Shown one piece after another: positions 14,678 to 48,504 of a stretch of DNA of 64,000 bases. Location of the stretch: IMG/VR virus record IMGVR_UViG_3300034072_000647; one strand, written 5' to 3'. The translations under genes and the position numbers were made by a program. The DNA comes from a virus. Lineage: Duplodnaviria > Heunggongvirae > Uroviricota > Caudoviricetes. How positions within the stretch are numbered: the first letter of the stretch is position 1; each line of letters opens with the position of its first letter. The notes beneath the pieces are model-generated. The model ran no database searches and was not told where the DNA came from. It saw only the letters and a list, made by a program, of their open reading frames with translations.

Positions 14678-14862
14678 GTGAAATATTCCTTTTGAAGCTG
14701 CCAATAGGTCAGCTCATTTTCTGCGTCACAAAGTTCATAATGAACCGAATACCACTCTTCGGACTCTTCTTCATAAGTGCTAAGTTCATTAGACAACTCA
14801 TGAACAAGACGTTCAGCTAAGTCTTCATTAGCTTCAATCTCTTCCCAAGTATGATCGTTCAT
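14668..14862 (-). CDS. Small acidic protein (64 aa)
   Basis: ORF downstream of a consensus early promoter. Confidence 0.5.
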   Translation of the reverse strand: MNDHTWEEIEANEDLAERLVHELSNELSTYEEESEEWYSVHYELCDAENELTYWQLQKEYFTDV

Positions 14863-14914
14863 TGCTATCTCCGCTCTTGATGCCTCATTATAACAAAGGC
14901 AGTAGTGAAAGTCA
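14862..14914 (-). promoter_or_regulatory. Consensus early promoter plus conserved leader GAGGCATCAAGAGCGGAGA (representative of 20 or more copies)
   Basis: Minus sense: TTGACTttcactactgcctttgtTATAATgaggcatcaagagcggagatagcaATG. Confidence 0.65.
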
Positions 14915-14931
14915 AGAACTATTTCAGTAAT

Positions 14932-15009
14932 TGGTGAACCGACGAGGATTTGAACCTCGATCCCAAGGATTAAGAGTCCCGGTATTAGCCTATTATTAAG
15001 ATCGGTCCA
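14932..15009 (-). tRNA. tRNA with CTCTTAA anticodon loop (Lys-CTT-like)
   Basis: T-arm CGAGGTTCAAATCCTCG, CCA end, AT-rich D-arm. Confidence 0.5.
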
Positions 15010-15169
15010 TTATCTCTCGTTGCTGTTTAACCGCCACAACGATGGCGTGATCTGCTTTTAGATTACCTGTTCCGTGACAGGCACAGCAGATGCGAAATTT
15101 GTCTTTGAATTTCGAGCCACGCTTAGGCTTGAATAAGTTACCACTTCCGCCGCATTTGTGACACAACAT
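14996..15169 (-). CDS. Small zinc-ribbon protein (57 aa)
   Basis: Unlisted ORF MLCHKCGGSGN...CCACHGTGN with a GGAGAC SD and a promoter upstream. Confidence 0.45.
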   Translation of the reverse strand: MLCHKCGGSGNLFKPKRGSKFKDKFRICCACHGTGNLKADHAIVVAVKQQREIMDRS

Positions 15170-15280
15170 GGTAGTCTCCGCTCTTGATGCCCAATTATAA
15201 CAAGGTTGGCGGTCAAAGTCAAGAACTAAATTTTAAGAGGTTGAATCCGTTTTAATTACAGAGATTCATCCCCGAAAGCT

Positions 15281-15316
15281 ATAAAAATAGCCGAGGCTCC
15301 GTCGAGAACCTCGGCT
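15281..15316 (-). terminator. Intrinsic terminator (minus strand)
   Basis: AGCCGAGG...CCTCGGCT hairpin followed by ATTTTTAT in minus sense. Confidence 0.55.
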
Positions 15317-15324
15317 ATAATAGA

Positions 15325-15395
15325 TGGTAGCAGACCTAGGTAACGATCCTAGCTAGTCCAGGATATGAGCCCGAACCCCTCCCTGAGGGACTGCC
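15325..15395 (-). tRNA. tRNA-like (T-loop ATCGTTA; anticodon unresolved)
   Basis: Acceptor GGCAGTC/GTCTGCT with a CCA end. The internal fold is unclear. Confidence 0.4.
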
Positions 15396-15398
15396 ACA

Positions 15399-15644
15399 TT
15401 AGCCTTCAGACTTTTCGTAGGTCGCTCGATCTACGCAGATCATGCGATTCAACTTCTTGTCTTTAATTAGAAAAGGCTTATCACTATTACAGTTTGGTTC
15501 ACTGTTATACACAGTTTTATGATATTCACTATCTAGTATTACTGCATTAGGCCCTGCGGTAACAATTACGCGCGGGTCTGCATTGGCGGGACTGCCAGCA
15601 GCCAACCCTAGTAAAAACAGTCCTGTGAGTAACTTATTAAACAT
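15399..15644 (-). CDS. Small secreted protein (signal peptide)
   Basis: Starts MFNKLLTGLFLLGLAAGSPANA. Confidence 0.5.
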   Translation of the reverse strand: MFNKLLTGLFLLGLAAGSPANADPRVIVTAGPNAVILDSEYHKTVYNSEPNCNSDKPFLIKDKKLNRMICVDRATYEKSEG

Positions 15645-15659
15645 ATGATAATCCTTATA

Positions 15660-15730
15660 TGGAGCCGACATTGGGGTTCGAGCCCAACTAAACGACGTAC
15701 GAAGCCGTTGTCCTCGCCAGAGGTGTCGGC
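15660..15730 (-). tRNA. tRNA-Thr(CGT)
   Basis: Perfect acceptor GCCGACA/TGTCGGC. Anticodon ACGGC-TTCGTAC-GTCGT. T-arm TTGGGCTCGAACCCCAA. CCA end. Confidence 0.55.
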
Positions 15731-15736
15731 ATGAAA

Positions 15737-15829
15737 TGGAGGAAGGCTGGTGGTGTCGATCCCCAACCGTATCGCTACGAGTCCACTAGTTTTCAAGACT
15801 AGGCCTGGGGCCGCCCAGGATAACCTTCC
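15737..15829 (-). tRNA. tRNA-Ser(TGA)-like, long variable arm
   Basis: Acceptor GGAAGGT/GCCTTCC and a CCA end. Perfect anticodon hairpin CTAGT-CTTGAAA-ACTAG. Atypical T-arm with an ATCGACA loop. Confidence 0.5.
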
Positions 15830-15830
15830 G

Positions 15831-16034
15831 TTAAGCTGTAATTGCGATGACCTTATCGCGAACGCGGGCAGCGCGCTCAATCTCGCTAGCGCGGGCATCT
15901 ACACCAGCACTGAGCTTGACAATGGTTTCTTGGTCTTTCACGTTCTTGGCATTCTCAGCGTCGATATAAGTTTCGAGATCACGCTGAACCTTGCTGAAGG
16001 CTCCAAGAATATTATCAAGACTACGATTGAACAT
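15831..16034 (-). CDS. Small coiled-coil protein
   Basis: Started at an internal Met. Confidence 0.45.
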   Translation of the reverse strand: MFNRSLDNILGAFSKVQRDLETYIDAENAKNVKDQETIVKLSAGVDARASEIERAARVRDKVIAITA

Positions 16035-16060
16035 TAACTTACCTTTCCGTTGTTGAAAAA

Positions 16061-16137
16061 TGGATCCCCGCGTAGGACTCGAACCCACACTCACTAGGGC
16101 CAAAACCTAGCCGCCTTACCCGATAGCGCAACGGGGA
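16061..16137 (-). tRNA. tRNA-Gln(TTG)
   Basis: Anticodon CTAGG-TTTTGGC-CCTAG. T-arm GTGGGTTCGAGTCCTAC. CCA end. Confidence 0.65.
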
Positions 16138-16143
16138 ATGGTG

Positions 16144-16320
16144 TTAGCGACTTACGAAAGCACTAACACCTGCGATGCTCACCCCGAAAACGAGGAAAAT
16201 CAACGCTAGAATTAGGAATAGAATAATAGGCCAGAAGATGAGCAACAGCCAACTGGTGGCAATGACGCCTACGATCTTGAGAATAATCAAAACAAGCCAA
16301 ATAACGCCAACAATACTCAT
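16144..16320 (-). CDS. Small hydrophobic membrane protein (58 aa)
   Basis: Unlisted ORF MSIVGVIWLVLIIL... Confidence 0.4.
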   Translation of the reverse strand: MSIVGVIWLVLIILKIVGVIATSWLLLIFWPIILFLILALIFLVFGVSIAGVSAFVSR

Positions 16321-16338
16321 ATTTATCCCCCTATAAAC

Positions 16339-16413
16339 TGGTACTCACGCAGGGACTCGAACCCCGATAGGCCGCTAATCAGGCGGCAGCCTTAGCCATT
16401 AGACGACGTGAGC
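16339..16413 (-). tRNA. tRNA-Ile(GAT)-like second copy
   Basis: Acceptor GCTCACG/CGTGAGT. Anticodon GCCGC-CTGATTA-GCGGC. T-arm CGGGGTTCGAGTCCCTG. CCA end. Confidence 0.55.
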
Positions 16414-16766
16414 ATGTGTGCATTCGCACGAAACTAGCCGGTTTGAAGTACATGCACCGGAAACTTAACCATCCGCGGGCGATAACTCCCGTTCCATATT
16501 TATACAGCCAAGGAGGTACTTTGGCTGTTGAGGCCGTCCGGAGACGGTTCCACCATCTGGGCCGTGTGTCGCTCCCAGAATAGATCAAATATTTTACAAG
16601 CACGATCATCCTATGCTTGGGGCCGGTAGGGTGGAGCGCACCCTGGCTTTTGCTAGACGTATTGCAAAGTACGATCTCTTCACTCATCAGGTAACGACCC
16701 ATGTTAGTTACTTTACCAAGCCCGTACTTGGTGTGTGGGGAAGCTGTTCCCACCTTCTAGCAAAAC

Positions 16767-16843: not shown

Positions 16844-16962
16844 ATGAAACTATGTAATAGCGGCGTTGATTTAACAACCCTTGGGAGGCTAATCCCGTTA
16901 TCGCCGTTTCCGCTCTTGATGACTCATTATATCTAAATTAGCAAGTAAAGTCAAGAACTATT

Positions 16963-17331
16963 TTATAGCATCTCAATGAACTTGCTCTTTCTATCCAGAA
17001 ACTTATAGTCCACGTGTACTGGTTTGAACTCTTCAATTGCTTCGAATACAATACCAGGAACTACATCAGAGCAGCTGTATACGTCGACCTGCAACATATA
17101 AGGGTACTCTTCATCCCAGCTGTGTAATACCACATGGCTAGTTTCTATAATGGCACCAATGGTCAGACCACGATTACCCTCAATAGGAGAATAACCGCCA
17201 AAAGGTCCGGCCATTATCTTCATGCCAAGACGATCAATAAGAGCTGAAAGCCAGCCCTTCATATATTCCATATCAAGCGGAGGCTTTTCTACCTCCGCTC
17301 TGATAATAAGATGCTTATGCTCTAACAACAA
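16963..17331 (-). CDS. S-adenosylmethionine decarboxylase proenzyme (SpeH/class 1a-like)
   Basis: ETSHVVLHSWDEEYPYMLQVDVYSC matches the [24 protein letters not shown] self-cleavage region. Confidence 0.7.
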   Translation of the reverse strand: MLLEHKHLIIRAEVEKPPLDMEYMKGWLSALIDRLGMKIMAGPFGGYSPIEGNRGLTIGAIIETSHVVLHSWDEEYPYMLQVDVYSCSDVVPGIVFEAIEEFKPVHVDYKFLDRKSKFIEML

Positions 17332-18024: not shown

Positions 18025-18231
18025 GCATGTCTCCTATCAATCAATGAAGCCTCAATATACACATATTGAGGCTTCAAGTCAAGAACTAAATTTTAAATCC
18101 TTCGCACGACTAGAACATTATCACCGTTGCGAGTGGACTGAACCTCTAGGGTTACTTTATCTCCCTCTTCCCAATATTCTAGTTCTTCTACGATATCATC
18201 TGTCAGGGCAATTACGAAATTGCCACTGATC

Positions 18232-21096: not shown

Positions 21097-21098
21097 GG

Positions 21099-21401
21099 TT
21101 AGTCTCGATGGTGTATCGTAGTCTCGCCGAGCAGAACATAAGGAGGAATAGCGAAGTCGCTGTCCACTAAGTCTGCCCACTTATCAGCCCCCAGGTACGC
21201 TCGTACCTGATCCGTATTACCTAGTTTCCTAATGGAGTCGAAGAGTTCTTTGTCCTCCGTAAAGATGTCCCAATGGTCGTACCCATAAGGCTTTACTATA
21301 ATACGATATACTTCTTGCATGGATTTCCTTTCGTAATAGCTCAATATACCAAAACCCGACCTATTTGTCAAGAAATGTTTTTTGCAAAGTAAAAGGGCCA
21401 C
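21099..21401 (-). CDS. Hypothetical protein (100 aa)
   Basis: ORF. Confidence 0.5.
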   Translation of the reverse strand: MALLLCKKHFLTNRSGFGILSYYERKSMQEVYRIIVKPYGYDHWDIFTEDKELFDSIRKLGNTDQVRAYLGADKWADLVDSDFAIPPYVLLGETTIHHRD

Positions 21402-21422: not shown

Positions 21423-21689
21423 TTATCTAGTAGGTCTAGCTGGTGGCAGAGGCATGTGCTCTTTTTCTGATAGCCAATACTTACCTTCGGGTCCGCATTT
21501 ATCTCTACCGAACCAGCTTTTCATGCGCTCCCAGTGGGCTGATACAGGGTTACTCTGCCAGCCTTGAACATTAGACCATACCTTCTTACGTCTGCATTGC
21601 CCACTCCAATAATGGAAGCAGGTCTTACAGATAGGTGGAAAGCCTTTCTCGGATGGTTCCGAAAGTTTCCATGTTGGAGACCTTGCCAT
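21423..21689 (-). CDS. Small Cys-rich protein
   Basis: ORF whose 5' end would overlap the nadV 3' end by about 65 nt. The true start may be internal. Confidence 0.3.
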   Translation of the reverse strand: MARSPTWKLSEPSEKGFPPICKTCFHYWSGQCRRKKVWSNVQGWQSNPVSAHWERMKSWFGRDKCGPEGKYWLSEKEHMPLPPARPTR

Positions 21690-23004: not shown

Positions 23005-23053
23005 TAGAGTCTCCCTCTTTGTTGTCTCATTATATGAAACTTTAGCAGCTGTG

Positions 23054-23782
23054 TCAACAACTAAATTCAGGTAACAATTTATTACCTTTTGATTTATTTT
23101 CTGATTCGGTTAGATATTGAAGATTATTCTCTACATGTAATCCACATACACAATCTCCTTGTAGTGGGATTATATGATCCACGTTATAACCTTTAGGTTT
23201 ATTTAAATAAATTTCTTCAATTTTATTTAAATCAGCCCAAAGAGGTATAGCCTGTAGTTGAGCAGCTCTTCTTTTGGCTGAATTAGCAAAGTACTTATCT
23301 TTATTTCTTTGATAATAATCTCTTCGCCATTTTCTATTATATTCTAAGTTTTCTTGATATCTTATTTTATTGTACTCGGACCAGCGCTCTGCATATTCAG
23401 GTTTAAGTGTTGTGTTGTTTCTCACACAATTTTTACACTCATGTTTTAGCCCGTCTGGAGTGTACTTATCTTTAGAGAATAATTCTCTATTTACAAGCTC
23501 TCTACATCTAGAACATCTTTTAACATTTGTAAAGGTTAAAAATAAACTCTCCCAGGATCTATTAGCCATAGACCTTAGATCAATGTCTGGGAATAGTTCC
23601 TTTACATAACGTCTTAAAGTTTGAGACGACATACCTAAAAAATTTGCTGCATCTTTATCAAATAGATATAATGCATCAATTACGTCTTCTTGAGTAGCCT
23701 CTTGTCTGCTACCAAACTTTGTTACAAGTATTTTACTAGGCTGTATGCCGTAAGTTTCATATAATTTATCTTTGTCGAACAT
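23054..23782 (-). CDS. HNH homing endonuclease
   Basis: The gene is AT-rich. The C-terminal HNH motif is YNVDHIIPLQGDCVCGLHVENNLQYLTESENKSKGNK. It is inserted between nadV and the downstream genes. Confidence 0.8.
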   Translation of the reverse strand: MFDKDKLYETYGIQPSKILVTKFGSRQEATQEDVIDALYLFDKDAANFLGMSSQTLRRYVKELFPDIDLRSMANRSWESLFLTFTNVKRCSRCRELVNRELFSKDKYTPDGLKHECKNCVRNNTTLKPEYAERWSEYNKIRYQENLEYNRKWRRDYYQRNKDKYFANSAKRRAAQLQAIPLWADLNKIEEIYLNKPKGYNVDHIIPLQGDCVCGLHVENNLQYLTESENKSKGNKLLPEFSC

Positions 23783-23836
23783 AAATTATAATAACAAATT
23801 TACACCTCATCGTCAAGGTGTAAATTTTATCTGGGT

Positions 23837-25920: not shown

Positions 25921-25961
25921 TAGAAGACTCCCTTCTTGATATGACTCATTGTATGAAATTT

Positions 25962-26603
25962 TCAGTTCCGAGTCAAGAACTGATTTAACTTACTCTTAGC
26001 TGATACTTCGGCGGTTTCCAAACCATCCCAGTTACCGACCCTACCTACAACCTGACCTTTATCATTAGTCCAAGCAATAGCATTGTCTCTAATAATCATA
26101 CGTGGCGGTTGCCAATCATAATTATCATAGCCAGTTACATTATAGCTACCGACTTCATTCATTCTAGGAAGATGATCTAGTACATCATCCTTTAGAGTTT
26201 GTTTCTGAACTACAGATTCTCTAGCCTTCTGATTCCTTTGAATCATTCCCTGAATAAGCTCTTTCAGTTGCTCACTATTATCTGTGGTTGTTCCAGTGAC
26301 ATAGTTAGTAACTGTAATCACCGGAGTAGTATCATTTGATACCTCAAGCTTCTTTAGTCGATCTTCGACTAATTTAGCATAGCCTTGGATATCATGGTAA
26401 TTATCAGTGTAGTAAGGATCTCCGTTGAGAATCCTTGCAATCTTATCAGAGATAACAACTAGACACTGACGAATGTCATAATCTAAAGTATCCCAGTTAC
26501 GTCCCTTACGGTAAACTTCCTGAATACCCTGTGCAATCTCTGCGTGGTCAATAAATTGGCCGTAACGTGCTCCACGCTCGGCCAGAGTGTTTTCTACTGT
26601 CAA
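25962..26603 (-). CDS. Hypothetical protein (213 aa)
   Basis: ORF. Confidence 0.55.
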   Translation of the reverse strand: MTVENTLAERGARYGQFIDHAEIAQGIQEVYRKGRNWDTLDYDIRQCLVVISDKIARILNGDPYYTDNYHDIQGYAKLVEDRLKKLEVSNDTTPVITVTNYVTGTTTDNSEQLKELIQGMIQRNQKARESVVQKQTLKDDVLDHLPRMNEVGSYNVTGYDNYDWQPPRMIIRDNAIAWTNDKGQVVGRVGNWDGLETAEVSAKSKLNQFLTRN

Positions 26604-27901: not shown

Positions 27902-28429
27902 AGAGTATCTCCTAAATTCTGTGGCCCGTTGGGTAACAAGGTGGGCCAGACCCCGGTCACTTATGCGGCGAGACGAATCTCGTCGAAAGCGACAACGTCA
28001 TTGTCGTTTGCGTTTACTTTTTGTGGCCAGTTTAAGTTTAGCCAGACTATAGCCTAACGTGCTTTTTTCACGCCGAATCGATCTCAGTTCTGCCCCATCA
28101 ATATTCTAGTAAAACTTCTAAGCTACACTGACCCATGCCAACGTCCTTAGACCATAGGAATCTCTCGTTTTGCAATCGAGCGCTTTGTTTTTCTGTTACC
28201 GCAGAATGGTCATTCGTCTTGTCGGGAGAGTAGTGCCTCGGTAAAAGCAGGGAGTCCCTATACTAGAATAATGGTGGAGCAGGTGGGAGTCAAACCCACG
28301 TCTTCAGCTGCTATTAAGTCGCTTCAAGCGGCTATTTAGTTAGATAAGTATAATGTTACCACGCAGGGTAGAGAACAATATACTTATCAATCTCGTTATG
28401 TCTCAATATACTAAATTTGAGCCGTCAAG

Positions 28430-28693
28430 TCAAGAACTTTTTTCCGAACGCTTCCGCTTTTCGTCTTCTTGAGGCGTATCCCCGAAATTGGGATGATTCA
28501 CTGACAGATTAGCCATGATATACTCATTAGTACGATAAAGGTCTCGATTATGAGCGTTAAGAATCTTCTTAGCCTCCATCTTCACCTTATGAGCATCGCG
28601 CAGCATTTCTTTCGTTACGCCCTTACCAGGACGCTTACAGGGCTTCTTATCGATCATTCTTTTCTCCAAAGGTTTCTTCACCCCGCTCCGCAC
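28430..28693 (-). CDS. Hypothetical basic protein (87 aa)
   Basis: ORF. Confidence 0.45.
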   Translation of the reverse strand: MRSGVKKPLEKRMIDKKPCKRPGKGVTKEMLRDAHKVKMEAKKILNAHNRDLYRTNEYIMANLSVNHPNFGDTPQEDEKRKRSEKSS

Positions 28694-29225: not shown

Positions 29226-29341
29226 GCCTCACGCTTTGTCTCCCTTTGTTGCACCCATTATATCCAAGATAAGGACCAGAGTCAACTCTGGATTAAGCAA
29301 CTGGTTAATAATATACCACCGACTAACTTATAAAATAGTTC

Positions 29342-33003: not shown

Positions 33004-33080
33004 ATGAATGTGATGGGGTCCAATGTCGTTCTCCGTTCTTGATGACTCATTATAATAAAAATCGGCAAGCAAGTCAACAC

Positions 33081-33362
33081 TCAATGCAAGGTAGGCTCAT
33101 AATTCACAGCTTCTGACAAGAAGTTAATAGGAGCCCAATAATCTCCATACTCATGTACCCAATCCGCAAGCCAGTCGGATACTCTAACCATTTTAGGGCT
33201 AGAAGATTTCAGCTCACTATTAGAGTTGTTACTAATGTACTTCTTGGCATCTGCGTAAGAACGATGGAAGCTAGCTCCGAATTTGGTTCCGGATTTAGTC
33301 CACGGCACTCCGTAGAGCCAATGAGTATTGGGCACAGTATAAGTATGTTCAGATAATTGCAC
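33081..33362 (-). CDS. Hypothetical protein (93 aa)
   Basis: ORF. Confidence 0.5.
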   Translation of the reverse strand: MQLSEHTYTVPNTHWLYGVPWTKSGTKFGASFHRSYADAKKYISNNSNSELKSSSPKMVRVSDWLADWVHEYGDYWAPINFLSEAVNYEPTLH

Positions 33363-33921: not shown

Positions 33922-34801
33922 AAAATCTCCTATTGATGACTCATTATACGCCAACTAAACATGTGAGTCAACACGTAACTTTGGAAGTGCTTGAAATGCG
34001 GTGGTCGGCGCACAGCAAAATGGGCAGCAACCCGAAAGTTGCTGCCCATGCCCCGGCAAATTCGTATTACGGGTTGATCCGGCCTGAACTTCTGCGCTTC
34101 AGGTCTTTAGGTGGGTTAATTACTCCGCTTGTTACCTCCTCAGATATTTCCCGCGAGGACGGGCCGGTTCTCCGGTATAAGGCAGTTTTAACTTCTGCCA
34201 AAGTAGACACATTTTGAGGACCAAGGAGACTTATGACGTAATCTCAGCTATCTCAAGGCTGCACCATGCCTAAACTGAACGTGAGGTCGCTCACCACCTG
34301 CTCCTCACCAACCGCATAGCCGGCCTTGACCCGCGGTTCCCGTCTAATTGTCGTCTGCGGCCGCGAACCGGACCACAAAATCCTACTAAGCCGCTAAGCC
34401 TAGATTTACCGTTAGTCTCTTACATGAACTTGTTCGGCAATCCTTAATGGTACGTGAAGTGTCTCGACCACGCACATCCGCTTTGTTCTACACAACAAAG
34501 ACCGTCTCTCTTTAGGCTAGAGCCGCCTATCAGGGTTAACTACCCCAATATGAATCAGGAGTTGAGGTCGTCTTCGATTACACCGCGTACGTCGGAAACC
34601 TCTTTCATCGTCGGGTCGTTGATCTCCTGAACTGTTAAACCGAGCCGGAGGTTAGTCCGGGGAATTCTTTGACTGGTCACAGGCAATTTTTCCTAGGATG
34701 CCAGCAATCGCAGTAGTAACAAGTTTGCTCCACGATTTAGCCCAGCTTGTAGCGGAGATCAACCCGCGTCTGGATTAAGGAGCCTCTATCTTACTTTCCA
34801 C

Positions 34802-35557: not shown

Positions 35558-35918
35558 CACTGGTTTATCACGTACGCCTCCTTGGAGGTTTCTCTTGCAA
35601 TCCGCTTCTAGCCAGCATGTCGCCATCAGCCCGATAAGCTAACCCTCAATTACTAAGACATATGAGCCAGTGCAGGGTCTGGTGGTTAATAACTCATATG
35701 AATATCGGCTGTTTCGCGTCCCACGACATTAACACCTTCTCAGTGCCACCAATTGATGTAGGCTCCGATGCACATAACTTTCTCGGATTTAATAGCGTAT
35801 AATATTGTGCTAACCTATAAGACGCTCGGCAAGGCACCCTGTGGATACCGGCCTAACTTCGTATTCGCGTCTTGATGTCTCATTATATCAACTTTAGGGT
35901 CTCAAGTCAAGAATTATT

Positions 35919-36128: not shown

Positions 36129-36177
36129 GTCTTTCTCCGTTCTTGATGACTCATTATAACGTGGCGGGCAGCTAAAG

Positions 36178-36597
36178 TCAACACTCATTTGAGTTAATGA
36201 TGAAAACTTCTCTAACATAGCAGCGACGCGGACCAAACTCGTCAATATGAGCAATTTCATACTGATCCATGGCGTAGGCATTTTGCACAGTTACCACATG
36301 ACCCGAAGTCCAGACCATATAGTGAACATTTGGCATAGCATAGAGCGAGTGCCACTTATGCAGTGTCATGCGCTCTGGCTGAGGAAGCTGAGTGTAGTTA
36401 ACACCCAACTTATTCATGGCCTCAGCAACCTGCTCAGGGTATGTCTTACCTCCATGCCGCTTTTGCCAAGGCATAAGACTACGCTTGATAGCATCAGTAG
36501 CCTTCTCAAAAGTTACGCTCGCAGCCACAGCTGTAGCCAGAACACCGCAAATAGGCTTCTTAGAAAGTTCTTCTTTCCAATCCGAAGGATACTTCAT
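36178..36597 (-). CDS. Hypothetical protein (139 aa)
   Basis: Started at MKYPSDW after the conserved leader. Confidence 0.5.
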   Translation of the reverse strand: MKYPSDWKEELSKKPICGVLATAVAASVTFEKATDAIKRSLMPWQKRHGGKTYPEQVAEAMNKLGVNYTQLPQPERMTLHKWHSLYAMPNVHYMVWTSGHVVTVQNAYAMDQYEIAHIDEFGPRRCYVREVFIINSNEC

Positions 36598-36654
36598 GCT
36601 CTGTCTCCGCTCTTGATGCCTCATTATACTGAGACGGACAGAGAAAGTCAACAA

Positions 36655-36798
36655 TCAATCTAAGCGATGCCAAGCTTCAAAGTATTTATAAAAACAGTCA
36701 ATGAAAGCTTGATCTTCCTCGTCATCTAGCCATTTCGGCTCGTCCATGAAACCTTGAATGGTCTCAGGCGTCAGATGGGGCCACTTCTCCTTGCGCAT
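36655..36798 (-). CDS. Hypothetical small protein
   Basis: The start is uncertain. Confidence 0.3.
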   Translation of the reverse strand: MRKEKWPHLTPETIQGFMDEPKWLDDEEDQAFIDCFYKYFEAWHRLD

Positions 36799-37865: not shown

Positions 37866-38001
37866 CCCATTTATCCAGCTCTATAAGATATTTCAGAAAT
37901 TCCGCGTCGTCCATATCACTAGGGAACAGCCGGGTTGCCAGTTGCTTAAAGTAATCTAACCTGTGCATGGACCCTCCGTTTATTGAGGGTCCATTATACA
38001 A
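37816..38001 (-). CDS. Hypothetical protein (61 aa)
   Basis: ORF. Confidence 0.4.
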   Translation of the reverse strand: MYNGPSINGGSMHRLDYFKQLATRLFPSDMDDAEFLKYLIELDKWDDNRTKEASEDGSLSD

Positions 38002-38029
38002 CAGTCAACAGTAGAAGTCAATAGCTAAG

Positions 38030-38359
38030 TTAGGCATCGGTAGCATTGACCGCAATGAGATAATTGGTCAGCTTTTCGAGGTCGGTAACAGTCATGCTAG
38101 GCAGCGAGGGCAGTTCCGGGCCATAGTAAGCACCGTAGAACTCCTTGATAATGTCAGCCTTGGTCTTCTTCTTGACAGCCGACTTCTTCTTATCGCCAGG
38201 GGCCTTCGTCTCGTAAGGAATTTCGAGCGACTTCGCCTTCGCGATAACACTTCGGACACCAATATTGTGCTTTTCTGCAAATACGGTAGCAATCTCATAG
38301 TTCATCTTCGGCACAGACTTGAGTTCTTCAATCTGAGCGTCGGTATAAGTCTGTGCCAT
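38030..38359 (-). CDS. Hypothetical protein; paralog of 37120-37470
   Basis: Shares the GVRSVIAKAKSL motif with the 37120-37470 product. Confidence 0.5.
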   Translation of the reverse strand: MAQTYTDAQIEELKSVPKMNYEIATVFAEKHNIGVRSVIAKAKSLEIPYETKAPGDKKKSAVKKKTKADIIKEFYGAYYGPELPSLPSMTVTDLEKLTNYLIAVNATDA

Positions 38360-38417
38360 AGTTATTTCTCCGTTCTTGATGACTCATTATATCGCGATAA
38401 GCGGGTCAAGTCAATAC

Positions 38418-38609
38418 TTAGTTAAAGCATTCCTCGATACGAGTCAAGCCCGCTTCTAGCCCCTTGAGAGCATCTTCTAGAGCATTAACCCAAATGTCTA
38501 AGTCCTCTGTACGTACCTTGGTAAAATCCTCTCCAAAACGCTTAGCATCTGCTAGCGCCTTCAAGATACGGGCTTCTGCATCATCTTCAATCAAGGTCAA
38601 GTCCTCCAT
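38418..38609 (-). CDS. Hypothetical protein (63 aa)
   Basis: ORF. Confidence 0.45.
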   Translation of the reverse strand: MEDLTLIEDDAEARILKALADAKRFGEDFTKVRTEDLDIWVNALEDALKGLEAGLTRIEECFN

Positions 38610-39679: not shown

Positions 39680-39871
39680 TCAAGCGCCCCATTTCGTGTC
39701 CTTCCAGAGTAGATTTGAAAGATCGGCATTGAGTTGTGCATTACGCTTCTCAAGATACTCGATGTAGCTTACGATGATTTCAGCACGAGTCTTCTCTTTG
39801 CCGGGATACCAACTTTTAGCATCTTCTGCGGCAATACGACGAAGATCATCAATTACTTCATTAATCGTCAT
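39680..39871 (-). CDS. Hypothetical protein
   Basis: Started at MTINEV after a GAGGAG SD. Confidence 0.45.
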   Translation of the reverse strand: MTINEVIDDLRRIAAEDAKSWYPGKEKTRAEIIVSYIEYLEKRNAQLNADLSNLLWKDTKWGA

Positions 39872-40145: not shown

Positions 40146-40206
40146 AAAAAATCTCCGTGTCTTGATGCCTCATTATATAAGACATAAGACACGGAGTCAA
40201 GAGCTT

Positions 40207-40461
40207 TTATAGGCGTTGCTGCCTCTTTTCCCGCGCCTCTTTCTCTAGCTTTTCATGCTCGATAGCGGTAAGAGCTGCACAAGTAACTACAAGTCCCCCA
40301 ATCAGTGCGAAGATAAATAGAAAACCCCACCAACCCAGAGAAATCGCGAAAGCGATGACAGCAATTACTAGAGTTAGTACAATAGCGGTTGCTAGTGTAC
40401 CGAGAGTGAAATAGGCCGGAATACGAAGGTATAAAGGCCCATCTGAAAGAAATTTAAACAA
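40207..40461 (-). CDS. Small membrane protein
   Basis: ORF. Confidence 0.5.
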   Translation of the reverse strand: MFKFLSDGPLYLRIPAYFTLGTLATAIVLTLVIAVIAFAISLGWWGFLFIFALIGGLVVTCAALTAIEHEKLEKEAREKRQQRL

Positions 40462-40789: not shown

Positions 40790-40950
40790 TTGCGAGCCAT
40801 ATTGTAGAGATTATCCAGAGCACCTTCCAACTTAGTAAGATGGACGATAAATTCAGGGTCCAGATTGTCCAGACGAACTACTTCATCCAGAGCCTTAGTG
40901 GCGATATTGCGGTACGTGCGAGCCTGGAGTTCGTTATTGAGAAAAGCCAT
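40786..40950 (-). CDS. Hypothetical small protein (54 aa)
   Basis: Unlisted ORF MAFLNNELQART... ATGA overlap with the downstream gene. Confidence 0.4.
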   Translation of the reverse strand: MAFLNNELQARTYRNIATKALDEVVRLDNLDPEFIVHLTKLEGALDNLYNMARK

Positions 40951-41195
40951 TAAGGAATCCTTTTAAAGAGATTGAAAATAAAAGAAATACAGAAGGCAAT
41001 AAGAGCAATGACACCTACTTCCTGTCCGAAGAAGCGCATAATAACCGATACTACCCCTAGAGATACCATAGCCAGTATAGCTAAGCCTAACCCCAACATA
41101 AAGGTATCGAAAAAGAAATTACCTTTAAAGCGACTTAAAAACGGTGGTAGATAGGCAAACACGTCGTTCGAACTCCTCTTCTGTAATTTCTTCAT
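40950..41195 (-). CDS. Small membrane protein
   Basis: Started at MKKLQKR. Confidence 0.45.
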   Translation of the reverse strand: MKKLQKRSSNDVFAYLPPFLSRFKGNFFFDTFMLGLGLAILAMVSLGVVSVIMRFFGQEVGVIALIAFCISFIFNLFKRIP

Positions 41196-41294
41196 TCCAG
41201 GAACGCTCAAAGTTCCTGCGATCCCAACCATCCGGGTCAAAGATCACTAGCGAGCGATATTTCTCAGTCTTCATCCATTCAGCCGAGGTTTTCT

Positions 41295-41966
41295 TCATAG
41301 TGGCTCCATAATAATAACTTCTACACCCGCGACTTTCTTGACTACGCGCTTGTGTGTAGGCTTTGGCGGTTCGGGTACAGGATCTGGCTTAGGCTCAACA
41401 TTATCGAACATCCAAAAAGGCTGAGCACCGTCCTTTAGATTACCAGATTTATCCCAGTCAGGATAGTTCCAGAAGTCTAAGCGTAGCTTTATATCTACTA
41501 CAGGCTGCTTTGGGGTAGCGGAAACTACCTCTTTAATAGAGGCTTTCTGTATAGCATTATCACGAAATTTTTCGTTTATTCGCTCTACAATTTCACGCTT
41601 TTTTGCCACTTCTCGTCTAGTAGCCGGACTTGTACGACTACTGGGTCTAACCAGTCGTGTGCTTCTAGGTAGCTGGCACTCAGGAACACGCATATTATAT
41701 AGAGTACCTAGGAACTGGTAAGCCTTATCATAGCAATCAATATCAACTTTGCCGGACCCGAAAAGCAACTTCTCTTCGTACCAAACTCCTCGGTAACCAA
41801 TCACTGGACGGCCATATATGCTAGCCATAGCGCCGGTAGGACCTGAGGGCAGTAAATCAGTGTTTAACAATTGCCGTGAGGATAACGCAGTGGCTCTCTG
41901 TGGATTGGAAGAATTCGACATCGGCTGTCGTGAGCTTTTTGTCTCGTAAGTATCGTCCCAAATCAT
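41295..41966 (-). CDS. Hypothetical protein (223 aa)
   Basis: ORF. Confidence 0.55.
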   Translation of the reverse strand: MIWDDTYETKSSRQPMSNSSNPQRATALSSRQLLNTDLLPSGPTGAMASIYGRPVIGYRGVWYEEKLLFGSGKVDIDCYDKAYQFLGTLYNMRVPECQLPRSTRLVRPSSRTSPATRREVAKKREIVERINEKFRDNAIQKASIKEVVSATPKQPVVDIKLRLDFWNYPDWDKSGNLKDGAQPFWMFDNVEPKPDPVPEPPKPTHKRVVKKVAGVEVIIMEPL

Positions 41967-42029
41967 CTAACATCCTCTGCCCTCTAGCTTCGAGATTGTG
42001 GGCGTATATACCGCCCGTAGTGAAAATCT

Positions 42030-42239
42030 TCACAGGTCCCTCCAAATAAGCCAAAGAAAGAAAATAAATCCACCAATTCCTGTCGCCCACTGGGCAGCTA
42101 CAGGTCCCAGCAGCCATGCTAGCGGATAATAAATGACTACGAGTAAAACTATTACTACTAAGTAGTAAACAACGGCAAGAATACCCATCACTAGGAGGAA
42201 TATTCCTAGTAACTTTAGTTTACGAACAGACTCGCTCAT
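42030..42239 (-). CDS. Small membrane protein
   Basis: Started at MSESVRKL. Confidence 0.45.
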   Translation of the reverse strand: MSESVRKLKLLGIFLLVMGILAVVYYLVVIVLLVVIYYPLAWLLGPVAAQWATGIGGFIFFLWLIWRDL

Positions 42240-42418
42240 GCGCTCTCCCACAGCCACTGGATAACATCCTCGGCTTCCAATTCGTGCCAATCTTCCCTAT
42301 TACCTGATGCAATATCCTCCAGATACTTATCCGCTGCAATATTTATGTCACGAATAAAGGCATCACGGCCTGCCTCAACTGCTGCGATCGCCTTAATCTG
42401 CCACTGTTCCAACTTCAA
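42236..42418 (-). CDS. Hypothetical protein (60 aa)
   Basis: ORF. Confidence 0.4.
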   Translation of the reverse strand: MKLEQWQIKAIAAVEAGRDAFIRDINIAADKYLEDIASGNREDWHELEAEDVIQWLWESA

Positions 42419-42605
42419 TCTCCTTAAAAAGCTTCACGTTCTTTTCACCGAAAAGTTCTTTGAACGTATCGCAGGCTCTGGTAGCTGCTGGTTTCTGGTC
42501 ATAAAACGGATGGGTAACCCCCTGCTCCGCTAGCACCCAACCTTTACGATCCAGCTTATTTATCATAATCGCGTAACTCATGGGAACAAAACTACTCCTG
42601 CACAA
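42393..42605 (-). CDS. Hypothetical protein (70 aa)
   Basis: ORF. Confidence 0.45.
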   Translation of the reverse strand: MCRSSFVPMSYAIMINKLDRKGWVLAEQGVTHPFYDQKPAATRACDTFKELFGEKNVKLFKEIEVGTVAD

Positions 42606-42799
42606 GATACTCGTTTTGGGCTAATGGGCTTAGACCCGCTGAAAGTTTCCTTACCATTAACTACCTTCCAGATAGAGTAGTTAGGTACAGCAGGTTGAGG
42701 GGTATCCAGCCCTTGGCTTAGCCAGGTCCAGCACCTTTTTGCGAACTGCCATTCTACATCGAACTTATTAGTTCGGATGCGAGTTTCATTTTCAGCCAT
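42578..42799 (-). CDS. Hypothetical protein (73 aa)
   Basis: ORF. Confidence 0.45.
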   Translation of the reverse strand: MAENETRIRTNKFDVEWQFAKRCWTWLSQGLDTPQPAVPNYSIWKVVNGKETFSGSKPISPKRVSCAGVVLFP

Positions 42800-42847
42800 G
42801 TAATCTCCTGTCTTGATCGCTCATTATACCGCGTTCAGCAGCTAGAG

Positions 42848-43081
42848 TCAAGACCGATTTTGAGCATTGAACAATTCAATTAAGTAAGAGTTAAATTGAC
42901 GGCTAATATGTGCGTCTGCTTCTCGCTTCTTCCGCCATCGTTCACGCTCAGCCAGTTCTTTAGCCGAGGGGAAGGTTCTGAAGTTCTGCGATGTATCAGG
43001 ACCGTAGTCTCCGTCATCGCCTTCGTCCGATTCAAAGTTCATAATCCTCCGGTATTTGTCCGTTCTTCTTAAGTTCTTCAA
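42848..43081 (-). CDS. Hypothetical protein (77 aa)
   Basis: ORF. Confidence 0.45.
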   Translation of the reverse strand: MKNLRRTDKYRRIMNFESDEGDDGDYGPDTSQNFRTFPSAKELAERERWRKKREADAHISRQFNSYLIELFNAQNRS

Positions 43082-44692: not shown

Positions 44693-44756
44693 GGCTGTCT
44701 CCTTTACAGCCCATTATACGAAAAAAGACGGCCCCAGTCAAGAGCCGTCTTCATCG

Positions 44757-45032
44757 TTACCTAATTTGTTTCAATTCGTATACGGGTTGATATTCATACA
44801 CCTCTACGATTAAATCTTGCGGGTTTAAGTCTAAAGATTCCATAATAAGTCGTGCTTTAATAATCACAGGATCATAGATATTAAAAGCCTGAGCCTTATT
44901 AGTAAGGGTTTCTCGTTCGTACGTGACTGCTATACCACCTATTGAGAATATGACGGTAACATCTGGCTTAGGTCCGTTAAACCCAGACACAGAGCCATGA
45001 GTGATTTTTACAAGAAACTCAGCTGACATCAT
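44757..45032 (-). CDS. Hypothetical protein (91 aa)
   Basis: ORF. Confidence 0.45.
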   Translation of the reverse strand: MMSAEFLVKITHGSVSGFNGPKPDVTVIFSIGGIAVTYERETLTNKAQAFNIYDPVIIKARLIMESLDLNPQDLIVEVYEYQPVYELKQIR

Positions 45033-46165: not shown

Positions 46166-46487
46166 GACACCAATCTAATTCGTCATTATACACACACTTT
46201 TTAGTGGGTGAAGTGGGGCAATCCCAGGCCCAGTAGTCAGTATCTACACTGAGCTCGGAACTGTTGATGTCTCCTAGATGCGAAGCGACGAGTTTCTGCT
46301 TGGCTTCTTTAGCTGCGCGGCGAAGCCCGCGAGCCTGTGCTTCCAGCCTCTCAGCATCTTGCTCCCAGCCGATAATAGTTCCCATGCTAGTCATATATTC
46401 CTCCACTACTTCTTCGATAGCTTTTATCATTTCATGCGTAAGAAGTACCATCGAAATACTCCATCTTACTATAGTGGCCGAAAGCAT
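46122..46487 (-). CDS. Hypothetical protein with C-terminal zinc finger
   Basis: ORF. Confidence 0.5.
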   Translation of the reverse strand: MLSATIVRWSISMVLLTHEMIKAIEEVVEEYMTSMGTIIGWEQDAERLEAQARGLRRAAKEAKQKLVASHLGDINSSELSVDTDYWAWDCPTSPTKKCVYNDELDWCHDECIFCGDPYERK

Positions 46488-46623
46488 CCATAGTGTAGAT
46501 AGCCACTGCTAGTGGTGCGTTATCTCCTTGCATGATGCTATCTCCATATTCCTGAATGTCATCATCTTTGATGCGCTTAGAAACACTATAGCCATCTTCA
46601 CGGATTTCTACAATATGGATCAT
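46432..46623 (-). CDS. Hypothetical protein (63 aa)
   Basis: ORF. Confidence 0.4.
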   Translation of the reverse strand: MIHIVEIREDGYSVSKRIKDDDIQEYGDSIMQGDNAPLAVAIYTMDAFGHYSKMEYFDGTSYA

Positions 46624-46726
46624 AACCCACGCTTTCTTTTATACCAGGGAATAAACTCTTCGTAATCCTCAGGATTACGACTTACGGGCGGATTGCCGTA
46701 AAATGACACCATAAAAAGCTCAAGAC

Positions 46727-46972
46727 TTACGACCTCAGCGACACCCCACGAGCCTTTTTCAGACCGCGTGACTTTGGTCCCGATTTCCATAGTTGAATAA
46801 CCTTCCCCATACTATAGCACATAACCAGAAAAGATAGAATTCCTCCGATGAAAAATCCCATCGCTACAATAAATTTATCGAAGCCTAGCTGGTTTATGAT
46901 AGCTGCTGACCCGCATAGCAGGATAAAAGCCCACAGTGCCGGCAAAAAGCCGTCTTCTAGAGTGTCTCTCAT
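46727..46972 (-). CDS. Small membrane protein
   Basis: ORF. Confidence 0.45.
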   Translation of the reverse strand: MRDTLEDGFLPALWAFILLCGSAAIINQLGFDKFIVAMGFFIGGILSFLVMCYSMGKVIQLWKSGPKSRGLKKARGVSLRS

Positions 46973-47160
46973 GGTGAGGTAATCCTTCCAATAACATAAG
47001 CCAAAGACAGTAGTGCTAGAACGGCGGCGAACATAATAGCCAAATAACCGATTACTGTGAAGAAAATGCCCATATAAAGCATACAGATCGATAGTACGAT
47101 CATAAATGCAGGTAGCAGCCCTCGATAGATATAATCACTCATGAAAAGCCCTCGTTGCAA
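46969..47160 (-). CDS. Small membrane protein
   Basis: ORF. Confidence 0.45.
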   Translation of the reverse strand: MQRGLFMSDYIYRGLLPAFMIVLSICMLYMGIFFTVIGYLAIMFAAVLALLSLAYVIGRITSP

Positions 47161-47332
47161 GATTGATGATGCTAGTCTCGTGGCCTTTAGGGTTATTCAG
47201 AATAGCTGCAGCAAGATTCTTTCGATCTTGGTCCATCTTCAATGCCAAATCTTTCATAGAATTCACTAGAGCACTGAGAGCGATAAGACATACTATTATA
47301 ACGAGCGAAAGTCCTACTATAACTAGTAACAT
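47135..47332 (-). CDS. Small membrane protein
   Basis: ORF. Confidence 0.45.
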   Translation of the reverse strand: MLLVIVGLSLVIIVCLIALSALVNSMKDLALKMDQDRKNLAAAILNNPKGHETSIINLATRAFHE

Positions 47333-47538
47333 TATTCAGTACTCCCGCTAAGGGCTTTTCCAACCCAATAACACACCCAAATAAACACACCAAGAAGAAT
47401 TCCGGCAACTGCTGTCAAGGGTGAAAGAATAAAAATATGTATAACGGATATAACCGCTATAGCGCAACCGACTGTCAGAACCACCACAATGAAGAGTAGT
47501 ACTAGCGTCGGGATGACACCTTTAAGAAAGTATCTCAC
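47332..47538 (-). CDS. Small membrane protein
   Basis: ORF. Confidence 0.45.
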   Translation of the reverse strand: MRYFLKGVIPTLVLLFIVVVLTVGCAIAVISVIHIFILSPLTAVAGILLGVFIWVCYWVGKALSGSTE

Positions 47539-47834
47539 ATCGCACCTTCAAACATTTCGTCCAGGAACTCGTTCAGACCATTGAAGCCATACAGATCAGC
47601 GAACTCGCTGTCATAAACCTTCATTTCGTCCTCAGTGCCGCAAGCCAGCTGCACCATTTCACTGTGATCCAGCGTCGACAGATAAGACTCGACACACGCC
47701 AGGAAATCATCGTCGTAATCCGTCAGAAACAGATACAGCTTGTCGATAATCTTCTCAAGCGACTGGTCCGCACTCACGCAACCGTTGTCGTAAGCGATCT
47801 CTTCGGCAATCTTTTCAATCATCACGTAACGCAT
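47535..47834 (-). CDS. Acidic hypothetical protein (99 aa)
   Basis: ORF. Confidence 0.5.
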   Translation of the reverse strand: MRYVMIEKIAEEIAYDNGCVSADQSLEKIIDKLYLFLTDYDDDFLACVESYLSTLDHSEMVQLACGTEDEMKVYDSEFADLYGFNGLNEFLDEMFEGAM

Positions 47835-47837
47835 AAG

Positions 47838-48149
47838 TTATCCTTTAACGAGAGTTCGGTAAGTGGGAACATGATCGGAAGTGGTAGAGGCCAGACGTTG
47901 CTTGCAGATCTTTACCAACTTACTGTCGGCTGAATAAACATCCACAATTCTCTCTAGAACGAACCTAAACGGACAGAACCGAGCATGAAACTTGTCCAGC
48001 CATGTGGGTGTGTTAATTACAACCACCTCGTCCTGATCCGTGATCCAATCTAGACCATAATGGTAACGTAGCGTCCCGCATCGCTTCATCCAGTAGTACA
48101 TTTGAGCACTCTGTTGAGGCGTGCCATAGGTTTTATCAATTGCCGCCAT
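47838..48149 (-). CDS. Hypothetical protein (103 aa)
   Basis: ORF downstream of the conserved promoter/leader. Confidence 0.5.
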   Translation of the reverse strand: MAAIDKTYGTPQQSAQMYYWMKRCGTLRYHYGLDWITDQDEVVVINTPTWLDKFHARFCPFRFVLERIVDVYSADSKLVKICKQRLASTTSDHVPTYRTLVKG

Positions 48150-48239
48150 GTGGTCTCCTGTCTTGATGCCTCATTATAACAAAAAGGGCGGAGTGAGTCA
48201 ACAGCTAGATTTAGTAGTCGTACTCTCTCCGCCCTTTTA

Positions 48240-48443
48240 TTAGTTGCCCGGAAGCAAAAGATATTTCCTCGTAGGCATATCCGGCCTAGCATTCTGAATC
48301 CAACCATCGGACCTAGGGTAGCATAGGTCTACTACTGCTATTTCGTCAATGTTCAGCTCACACTGTTCACTAAACATCCGGTGGGCCACTATCATGTCTT
48401 GGTCCAGGGTAAGTAGATACTTAATGAGCTCACGTACGGTCAT
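48240..48443 (-). CDS. Hypothetical protein (67 aa)
   Basis: ORF downstream of the conserved promoter/leader. Confidence 0.45.
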   Translation of the reverse strand: MTVRELIKYLLTLDQDMIVAHRMFSEQCELNIDEIAVVDLCYPRSDGWIQNARPDMPTRKYLLLPGN

Positions 48444-48504
48444 TATCGGCCTCCTCTTGAAGGCCCATTATAGCAAGATAGGCACCCAGAGTCAACAATC
48501 CAAA

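Follow-up and report, generated by a model that had tools for sequence, protein, structure and literature searches.

The annotated early promoters of the tequintavirus bacteriophage T5, such as PN25, P25, P26, P28, and PH207, had, when aligned on their -10 hexamers, the form AAAAAttcat-TTGCT(T/A)-N17-TATAAT-ATATT(C/T)-ATAAATTGAtGAGAGGA-(~8 nt)-ATG. The promoters of two other Demerecviridae were compared likewise: Providencia phage PR1 (another genus) followed the T5 consensus TATAAT-ATATT(C/T)-ATAAATTGAtGAGAGGA, and Vibrio phage 234P1 displayed a third version, TATAAT-ACTTGT-ATAGAATGAAGAAACGGAGA. The present analysis dealt with a repeated promoter-leader cassette, TATAAT-GAGNC-ATCAAGAGCGGAGA, found on the minus strand of IMG/VR virus record IMGVR_UViG_3300034072_000647 (hereafter the window, i.e., the whole 64,000-nt stretch of DNA analysed). 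With a probability of about 0.7, these cassettes would be the early-class sigma70 promoters of a T5-like phage, each composed of a class-specific discriminator, an initially transcribed sequence (ITS) favouring promoter escape, and a 19-nt 5' untranslated region (5'UTR); the conservation downstream of the -10 would then mainly reflect constraint at the DNA level together with 5'UTR design.

Several properties of the T5 promoters are established. Klimuk et al. described the ATATT discriminator as common to all known T5 early promoters and as their main difference from the late ones (PMC7472727); the -12/+2 oligonucleotide TATAATAGATTCAT of T5 N25 puts +1 at the A of TCAT, and the phage protein gpT5.026 weakens binding of RNA polymerase (RNAP) to the -5/+2 non-template segment (PMC7472727). 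The ITS controls promoter escape in T5 by experiment (PMC12464699, PMC5961368): a purine-rich non-template ITS supports escape from N25 and a pyrimidine-rich 'anti' ITS cripples it (PMC12464699), and GA or GG near +6 favoured escape in a large ITS library (PMC5961368).

The window encoded a homologue of the T5 pre-early protein A1 (54206-55954; ~42% identity to A1 of many Demerecviridae), a T4-type large terminase (~47% identical to that of Vibrio Demerecviridae), and 32 tRNAs on the strand that carries the promoters, and on this gene content it is an uncultured, divergent T5-like phage. Megablast of 20 kb of the window against 50,697 phage records gave zero matches, while metagenome contig L011 was 100% identical to window positions 13319-16485. 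The exact cassette 25-mer had 0 matches in IMG/VR, and a looser pattern had one (contig L002).

Structure and conservation of the cassette

TTGACT-N(16-18)-TATAAT matched the window exactly at 23 sites, where 100 dinucleotide shuffles predicted 0.00. The minus strand accounted for 22 exact copies of TTGACT-N17-TATAAT, so that sigma70-type hexamers 17 bp apart recurred many times. With one mismatch permitted per hexamer pair, 31 minus-strand promoters were found from 1.1 to 50.5 kb. CATCAAGAGCGGAGA with at most three mismatches had 11 matches (1.8 expected), all on the minus strand, and TATAATGAG.CATCAAGA occurred 10 times in the window. The complete leader GAG[GT]CATCAAGA[GA]CGGAGA was exact in six copies, three with GAGGCATCAAGAGCGGAGA and three with GAGTCATCAAGAACGGAGA; 10 copies had no more than 3 mismatches at 18 scored positions, and about 18 were recognisable when 1-nt indels were allowed. 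Full-consensus TTGACA-N17-TATAAT was present on the minus strand at 23034 (23029-23057) and 14279 (14274-14302), as well as in contigs L016 (279) and L002 (11685); a recent paper repeats the claim that the full sigma70 consensus has been adopted by no natural promoter (PMC12464699).

The cassettes, in the order of full copies, copies with altered leaders, variants, and weaker or outlying members, were as follows (minus strand, -, throughout).

6940..6998 (-): full cassette (A-tract, TTGACT, N17, TATAAT, GAGGC, ATCAAGAGCGGAGA, ATG 24 nt past the -10), 0 leader mismatches
14867..14925 (-): full cassette with the canonical leader GAGGCATCAAGAGCGGAGA, no mismatch
36603..36661 (-): full cassette, leader again canonical, no mismatch
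33029..33087 (-): full cassette, GAGTCATCAAGAACGGAGA form, start codon TTG, 1 mismatch
36133..36191 (-): full cassette of the GAGTCATCAAGAACGGAGA form
38366..38424 (-): full cassette of the GAGTCATCAAGAACGGAGA form
15174..15232 (-): cassette with discriminator variant TGGGC, ITS and Shine-Dalgarno (SD) sequence canonical, 2 mismatches
48153..48211 (-): cassette (CATCAAGACAGGAGA), -35 in the loop of a strong terminator-like hairpin (-32 kcal/mol)
42803..42861 (-): cassette, leader GAGCGATCAAGACAGGAGA, 3 mismatches
40152..40210 (-): cassette, leader with 1-nt insertion (CATCAAGACACGGAGA)
33923..33981 (-): cassette, shortened leader (GAGTCATCAATAGGAGA)
16906..16964 (-): cassette 16931, for a non-coding RNA and tRNA-Val 82 nt downstream, leader CATCAAGAGCGGAAA
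35862..35920 (-): cassette 35887, for a non-coding transcript, ITS variant ATCAAGACGCG
8774..8832 (-): cassette 8799, 6-nt discriminator GATTAC, ITS ATCAGGAGCGG, followed by a 53-nt hairpin and then tRNA-Asn
14254..14312 (-): cassette 14279, full-consensus TTGACA-N17-TATAAT, ITS ATCAAGAGAGGAG, non-coding transcript
5679..5737 (-): variant cassette (GGCTTT ATCAAGAGGAGA)
1116..1174 (-): variant cassette (GAGGCCTAATGAGGAGA), GAG kept also in the orthologous promoter of relative L002
12358..12416 (-): variant cassette 12383 (GGCTTCAACAAAGAGAGA), tRNA-Leu 21 nt downstream
23009..23067 (-): full-consensus TTGACA-N17-TATAAT (23034), variant leader GAGACAACAAAGAGGGAGA, upstream of NAMPT-like gene
25928..25986 (-): variant cassette 25953 (-10 TACAAT; GAGTCATATCAAGAAGGGAG), upstream of NMNAT-Nudix gene
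29237..29295 (-): variant cassette, GGG-type discriminator (GGGTGCAACAAAGGGAGA)
37973..38031 (-): variant cassette, discriminator GGACCC complementary to GGGTCC after the SD
44693..44751 (-): variant cassette (GGGCTGTAAAGGAGACAGCC), -35 in the loop of a terminator-like hairpin
48447..48505 (-): variant cassette (GGGCCTTCAAGAGGAGGCC)
18034..18092 (-): weaker member (-10 TATATT; GAGGCTTCATTGATTGATAGGAGA)
21323..21381 (-): weaker member (TTGACA, TATATT, GAGCTATTACGAAAGGAAA)
28385..28443 (-): weaker member (TATATT; GAGACATAACGAG), immediately upstream of permuted tmRNA
3418..3476 (-): weaker member (TATATT; AGTTGAATAAGGAGA)
53976..54034 (-): leader-bearing promoter 54001 (TTGACG, TATAAG, GATTAC ATCAAGAGG), outside the early block and adjoining the A1 gene

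An information profile was computed from the 31 promoters aligned on the -10, with positions counted from its first T. About 58 nt were conserved without a break from the A-tract upstream of the -35 through the SD, the spacer being essentially unconserved, and the edges were sharp, with information near 0 bits beyond +24 and upstream of about -34. This continuous, sharp-edged profile with an unconserved spacer argues for position-specific selection rather than copied DNA. The conserved parts were (i) an A-rich block with A in 25/31 and 24/31 promoters at -33/-32 (about -44/-43 from the putative +1), lying within AAa.TA..TC (about -44 to -36), (ii) T(C/G)TTGACT around the -35, (iii) a G-rich discriminator GAG-N-C of 5 or 6 nt (mostly 5; G 27/31, A 21/31, G 24/31, N, C 20/31), and (iv) the 14-nt purine-rich ITS AUCAAGAGCGGAGA (A T C A A G A, then R-CGGAGA), of which the last five bases constituted the SD. 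Among the 12 positions following TATAAT (GAG.CATCAAGA), 11 carried 0.4-1.3 bits and the variable fourth base was near zero. Of 74 coding cases, 33 had their start codon 24 nt past the -10, giving a modal 5'UTR of 19 nt.

An earlier note on this DNA had reported more than 20 identical copies of the cassette, conserved beyond the -35, -10, and SD, with the SD at the 3' end of the leader. More than 20 identical copies is an overstatement: the hexamers had 23 exact matches, and the full leader was exact in only six copies; the 15 example coordinates given there were all real copies, the complete set (1116 to 54034) spanned a wider range than had been given, and the alignment of 31 promoters bore out both the extended conservation and the position of the SD. 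The view that the ORF-encoded N-terminal extensions YNESSRTE are spurious was likewise correct, as TATAATGAGTCATCAAGAACGGAG translates to ...YNESSRTE.... The statement that nearly every early gene has its own copy was too strong: about 31 promoters were found for about 130 minus-strand open reading frames (ORFs), which makes these units short operons.

The cassette and the T5 early promoters shared (i) their setting, with a minus-strand early region, a tRNA cluster, and an A1 homologue, (ii) the order A-rich block (~-43; AAAAA in T5 and PR1 at the same place as the A-block of the window), -35, 17-bp spacer, TATAAT, and class-specific discriminator, (iii) (C/T)AT with A as +1 (a putative start in the window), followed by a purine-rich ITS ending in the SD and a short 5'UTR, and (iv) use of such promoters also for tRNA and stable-RNA genes, with some of them overlapping an upstream terminator. 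They differed in the -35 (TTGACT in the window versus TTGCT(T/A) in T5), the discriminator (GAG-N-C, G-rich and mostly 5 nt, versus ATATT(C/T), AT-rich and 6 nt), the ITS (AUCAAGAGCGGAGA, 14 nt and GC-richer, versus AUAAAUUGAUGAGAGGA), and the 5'UTR (~19 nt versus ~24 nt). By homology with T5 N25, where +1 is the A of TCAT, and by the fixed 4-5 nt offset, the start site in the window is likely the A of CAT. Judged from these alignments, a cassette conserved from -43 to the SD with a lineage-specific discriminator and ITS is a trait of the family; such promoters have been known for T5 since the 1980s, so that the sequence variant of the window is new and the principle is not.

Position of the leader and anti-leaders of non-coding transcripts

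A clade set of 117 non-redundant promoters combined those of the window with those of 27 related metagenome contigs. The exact 24-nt leader TATAATGAGNCATCAAGANCGGAG was present in these 27 contigs, in which coding DNA was only ~70% identical to the window and promoter spacers were unrelated, and recent duplication or simple gene conversion is thereby ruled out as the cause of its conservation. The core CATCAAGAG (at most 1 mismatch) occurred in 57/117 clade promoters against a background of 0.6%, always at offset 4 or 5 from the -10 and at none of the other 12 offsets tested. Where the discriminator was 6 nt long, the entire ITS moved along with it, as expected of an element anchored to the start site, and the GAG.C discriminator, which is expected to be untranscribed, was conserved together with the ITS. 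In the window, CATCAAGA had 15 minus-strand copies, of which 12 were linked to promoters at the fixed offset, and no plus-strand copy, and at the ribosome sites of 109 internal genes with no promoter ahead the leader was found in 0/109, the SDs there being heterogeneous (AAGGA, GGAG, GGAGG, or weak).

The conserved bases fell exactly within -6 to +15, the zone in which effects of sigma70 discriminator and ITS have been documented. The ITS had a purine content of 77% (52% background), core-less promoters still had 68% at those positions, and GA stood at +6/+7 of the window ITS; a purine-rich non-template strand and GA at this place agree with the published escape determinants (PMC12464699, PMC5961368). 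The N25/N25anti escape studies gave tendencies rather than a motif, and the near-invariant 14-mer of the window is more specific than those rules require.

Some cassettes drove tRNA or non-coding RNA and retained the ITS: 16931 (tRNA-Val), 8799 (tRNA-Asn), 12383 (tRNA-Leu), 35887, and 14279. In three of four folded cases, a complementary anti-leader farther downstream paired with the first 7-10 nt of the ITS, and this stem closed a structure of 50-70 nt, as follows.

8735..8744 (-): anti-leader CGCUCUUGAU, paired over 10 bp with +1..+10 of transcript 8799 as closing stem
14197..14204 (-): anti-leader CUCUUGAU, paired with +1..+8 of transcript 14279 to close a structure of ~71 nt
35819..35825 (-): anti-leader GCGUCUU, partner of AAGACGC at +4..+10 of transcript 35887

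The hairpin at 8787-8735 contained the stem AUCAGGAGCG/CGCUCUUGAU (-25.9 kcal/mol as a whole), the structure at 14267-14197 contained the stem AUCAAGAG/CUCUUGAU, and the AAGACGC/GCGUCUU pairing at 35873-35819 compensated the ITS variant of promoter 35887 itself. Besides these three cis-paired anti-leaders, neither a free anti-leader on the same strand nor a plus-strand leader copy was found in the window, and Rfam gave no family for the non-coding transcripts behind 35887 and 14279. Clade-wide, the predicted pairing probability of +1..+10 exceeded 0.7 in 9/20 non-coding and 2/57 coding transcripts (Fisher p=4e-5), with 0.72 such highly paired cases expected when the downstream 86 nt were shuffled. 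At one orthologous site (from the DUF7788 gene to tRNA-Asn) in the window and contigs L014, L016, and L008, the closing stem persisted and the interior of the structure differed. Clear single cases existed outside the clade, namely T5 P16-17 to RNAX, with a perfect 13-bp hairpin from +1, and PR1 42902; anti-leader pairing was prominent in the window clade but sporadic in T5 and PR1. The simplest reading is that the ITS must stay for promoter function and that, where it is unwanted as a ribosome site or free 5' end, it is neutralised in the RNA. The anti-leader stems thus argue, from sequence alone, that the transcribed part of the promoter is constrained as DNA, and systematic masking of the ITS in non-coding transcripts may be the new part of this system.

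Proposed mechanism and competing explanations

By virtue of the UP-like A-tract, a -35 near consensus, a consensus -10, and the 17-bp distance between the two hexamers, these promoters would be bound very tightly by host sigma70 holoenzyme, whereby promoter escape would become the limiting step. The G-rich discriminator may tune the open complex via sigma region 1.2 and core contacts, and the purine-rich ITS would minimise abortive cycling and backtracking, such that escape would no longer be limiting. The same ITS bases would supply GGAGA 5-7 nt ahead of the start codon, within a leader short enough for ribosome loading once the RNA emerges; in tRNA and non-coding transcripts the ITS would be kept and a downstream anti-leader would neutralise it in the RNA. 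In this scheme we infer the start site, the escape role, and early transcription by the host polymerase. About 100 independent natural promoters of the window and its relatives have near- or full-consensus sigma70 elements and one strongly conserved discriminator plus ITS, and they amount to a natural experiment in escape and 5'UTR design under maximal polymerase binding. Recognition of the cassette also fixes start codons, the YNESSRTE-type extensions being artefacts, and delimits the operons of this clade of uncultured phages. T5 promoters are widely used in expression vectors, and the GC-richer variant, with a 5'UTR of 19 nt, is a candidate for use as a part in other hosts.

Several points weigh against this scheme. 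About 40/117 clade promoters lacked the core ITS despite consensus -35 and -10 hexamers, so that the ITS is not obligatory. The start site and early timing are drawn from homology with T5, and a 5-nt discriminator would put the start 6 nt past the -10, near the lower limit of common spacings. The ends of the metagenome contigs were uninformative as stand-ins for transcript 5' ends, since the contigs took in the promoters as well. A tblastn search for gpT5.026 within the 64-kb window, which covers half of the genome, gave no homologue (E=0.17, noise). The contrast in anti-leader pairing was 3/19 versus 2/41 (p=0.31) in a crude survey of T5, PR1, and Vibrio 234P1, and the anti-leader effect is accordingly demonstrated for the window clade only. 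The near-invariance of CGGAGA(T), set against diverse internal SDs, exceeds a generic need for purines, and a sequence-specific reader (protein or RNA) is possible because the near-invariant 14-mer goes beyond the known escape rules; the most plausible candidate would be a phage RNAP-binding factor that tells temporal classes apart. In its strongest form, the discriminator and 14-nt ITS would be the recognition determinant of a phage factor acting on the initiating polymerase or the nascent 5' end and switching the early class, which we regard as decidedly unlikely. If it were true, the non-coding RNAs of the clade would have evolved anti-leaders to escape the factor or the ribosome, and anti-leader stems would be a new general signature of DNA-level constraint on the transcribed part of a promoter.

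T4 RegB cuts at GGAG, and T4 RegA likewise controls early mRNAs at the RNA level, in or close to the SD; their targets resemble the window cassette in that many early genes share a short GGAG-containing motif at their ribosome sites. A comparable RNA operator, in which a phage translational repressor or endoribonuclease would read the single-stranded leader AUCAAGAGCGGAGA and co-regulate all promoter-proximal early genes, would agree with the predicted exposure of the SD-containing leader in coding transcripts (mean pairing probability 0.38), with the exact conservation of the leader, beyond any SD, across phages at only ~70% DNA identity, and with its hiding in non-coding stems, which could equally mean evasion of such a factor. 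RegB and RegA sites, however, are set relative to the ribosome site, whereas the window motif was tied to the -10 (offset 4 or 5) rather than to the start codon; its absence from all 109 internal genes would leave only the first cistron of each operon regulated, and the promoter linkage of 12/15 CATCAAGA copies likewise spoke against promoter-independent placement at ribosome sites. The conserved block moreover took in the discriminator, expected to be untranscribed, and the sequence was kept ahead of tRNAs and non-coding RNAs, where control of translation is meaningless. This operator is less parsimonious than a promoter-proximal element and, in our judgement, very improbable; of the roles suggested in the earlier note, the promoter-proximal element is favoured by the fixed -10 register and conserved discriminator, and the repressor or RNase target found no support. 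Global shut-off in trans, with anti-leader RNAs containing CGCUCUUGAU (e.g., the 8787-8735 hairpin) blocking the SD of early mRNAs, is barely credible: the anti-leader at 8735-8744 does match the consensus leader at 10/10 positions, better than its own cis partner, with which it forms one G-U wobble, but the anti-leaders are already cis-paired in stable stems (-19 to -33 kcal/mol), that of 35887 fits its own variant ITS and not the consensus, and no free-standing anti-leader was seen elsewhere on the transcribed strand of the window.

Two further proposals are compatible with the early-promoter scheme or would add to it. The lineage-specific discriminator and ITS may mark early promoters for a phage RNAP-binding factor in the early-to-late switch, as proposed for gpT5.026 acting via the -5/+2 region in T5 (PMC7472727); we hold this temporal tag to be a tentative possibility, compatible with the scheme above. 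In its favour are the main difference between T5 early and late promoters, which lies in the discriminator, and the weakening of RNAP binding at -5/+2 by gpT5.026 (PMC7472727), the other -10 and discriminator of the A1-region promoters at 52-60 kb (TAAAAT or TATAAT, then CGGCGC or CGTGCC), the missing leader of the one plus-strand promoter at 60997, and each Demerecviridae lineage having its own discriminator and ITS, as expected from co-evolution with a phage factor. The failure of tblastn to find gpT5.026 (see above) counts against it, as do the leader-bearing promoters with weakened -10s that also adjoin A1 (window 54001; contig L012) and make the class boundary unclean; the lineage-specific letters could just as well stem from hosts differing in RNAP or in nucleotide composition. 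In an additional role, the cassettes could serve as short homology patches for swap, insertion, or deletion of promoter-led modules, with gene conversion adding uniformity, after the manner of PeSL elements of T4-like phages. PeSL elements also come in many copies, as composites of a terminator hairpin and an early sigma70 promoter (PMC2839356, PMC4122927), scattered amid small variable ORFs, and their promoter-led modules are shuffled among relatives. Relatives of the window were mosaics: the module of contigs L017/L020 (cassette plus homologue of window 40142-39918) adjoined an SPFH gene (window 32275-31739) and preceded the homologue of 40783-40460, the homology of contig L003 to window 37473-36643 stopped at the shared cassette and was followed by a different gene, and 11/31 cassettes overlapped a hairpin (at most -9 kcal/mol) plus T-run, often with the -35 in the loop, resembling the terminator/promoter composite of PeSL (PMC4122927). 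PeSL belongs, however, to another phage family and centres on the stem-loop, whereas only about a third of the window copies had the hairpin (the remainder not above shuffled controls) and conservation reached instead into the transcript (ITS, SD). Conversion tracts would also homogenise the 17-bp spacer, which is unconserved between conserved blocks; the longest contiguous identity was only ~25 nt, intergenic breakpoints are expected anyway, and the L003/L017/L020 junctions are individual examples. A recombination role is thus unlikely, and early promoters with an escape-favouring ITS are preferred as the explanation of the cassettes.

Hairpins, A1-region promoters, and neighbouring genes

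Terminator-like hairpins with a T-run in the promoter spacer were located at 48170-48235, 44720-44760, 31240-31300, 23795-23830, and other sites on the minus strand; their stems flanked the looped -35, as in GGGCGGAG...CTCCGCCCTTTTT at 48178 (-32 kcal/mol) and GACGGC...GCCGTCTTTTTT at 44718. In 'GGN' variant promoters (48447-48472, 37973-37998, 44693-44718, and 5679-5704, minus strand), the discriminator was complementary to the bases right after the SD (GGGCC..GGCC, GGACCC..GGGTCC, GGCTGT..ACAGCC, and GCTT..AAGC), and the resulting hairpin would have the SD in its loop; it would be possible only in read-through transcripts because its 5' arm should be untranscribed from the adjacent promoter. 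Compared to window 31739-42967, contigs L017 (760-3430) and L020 (3010-5940) had the same small genes reordered, with cassettes at the module boundaries and an SPFH/Band-7 gene inserted between the homologues of window 40142-39918 and 40783-40460.

A second promoter class was recognized on both strands of the A1 (pre-early-like) region at 51787-59010, with TTGACA-N17-TAAAAT/TATAAT and a GC-rich discriminator (CGGCGC or CGTGCC); examples of its -10s were at 54082+, 54129-, 57071+, 58987+, 58927-, 52214-, 53472-, and 51810+, and several of these promoters were overlapping divergent pairs. The T5 pre-early promoter PH22 also has TTGACA...TAAAAT, and the GCGC core of this class is similar to the nick-site consensus given in the record of T5. 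A 301-aa ORF (60004-60909, minus strand) between the A1 region and the plus-strand terminase block had Myb/HTH motifs and a homing-endonuclease-associated repeat, with only weak Sigma70_r4 similarity; a homing endonuclease is thus more probable than a sigma factor.

Other candidate properties of the ITS were considered and rejected: (i) a sigma70 pause element, a -10-like hexamer with A at position 2 and T at position 6, since CATCAA matched 3/6 of TATAAT with the final T missing, (ii) extended anti-SD pairing of the leader, since by inspection GGAG alone pairs with the 16S 3' end, and (iii) an NAD-capping promoter, for which the consensus around +1 is HRRASWW and GGC-A-TCA is a poor fit. The last was considered because of apparent NAD-salvage enzymes of the phage: a NAMPT/NAPRTase-like enzyme (21625-23004, minus strand) directly behind cassette-type promoter 23034, and a fused cytidylyltransferase-like (NMNAT-type) plus Nudix protein (24904-25920, minus strand) directly behind promoter 25953, which by sequence look like a phage pair for NAD+ salvage or reconstitution.

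A full-length permuted (two-piece) transfer-messenger RNA (tmRNA) was identified at 27961-28335 on the minus strand (Rfam RF04321, 85.6 bits versus a gathering score of 47; no ARAGORN call), directly downstream of a cassette-type promoter (-10 at ~28410); a permuted tmRNA is unusual for a T5-like phage and may hint at the host lineage. ARAGORN called a 'tRNA-Stop' with anticodon UUA at 35485-35557 (minus strand), on which the Rfam tRNA model was silent even at E<=1, and it is thus doubtful or highly aberrant. In the relatives, two more promoter-proximal transcribed sequences were conserved behind the same -35 and -10, namely CATGATAAGAGTTGACAACGATCTC and GAGTTCA(T/C)AAAGCGGGCCAGCCACGAGTTCGGTCGCAGC (sites L010 1160, L020 2378, and L025 923; L017 9209, L020 11725, and L022 934), and both are probably conserved non-coding RNAs of the clade.

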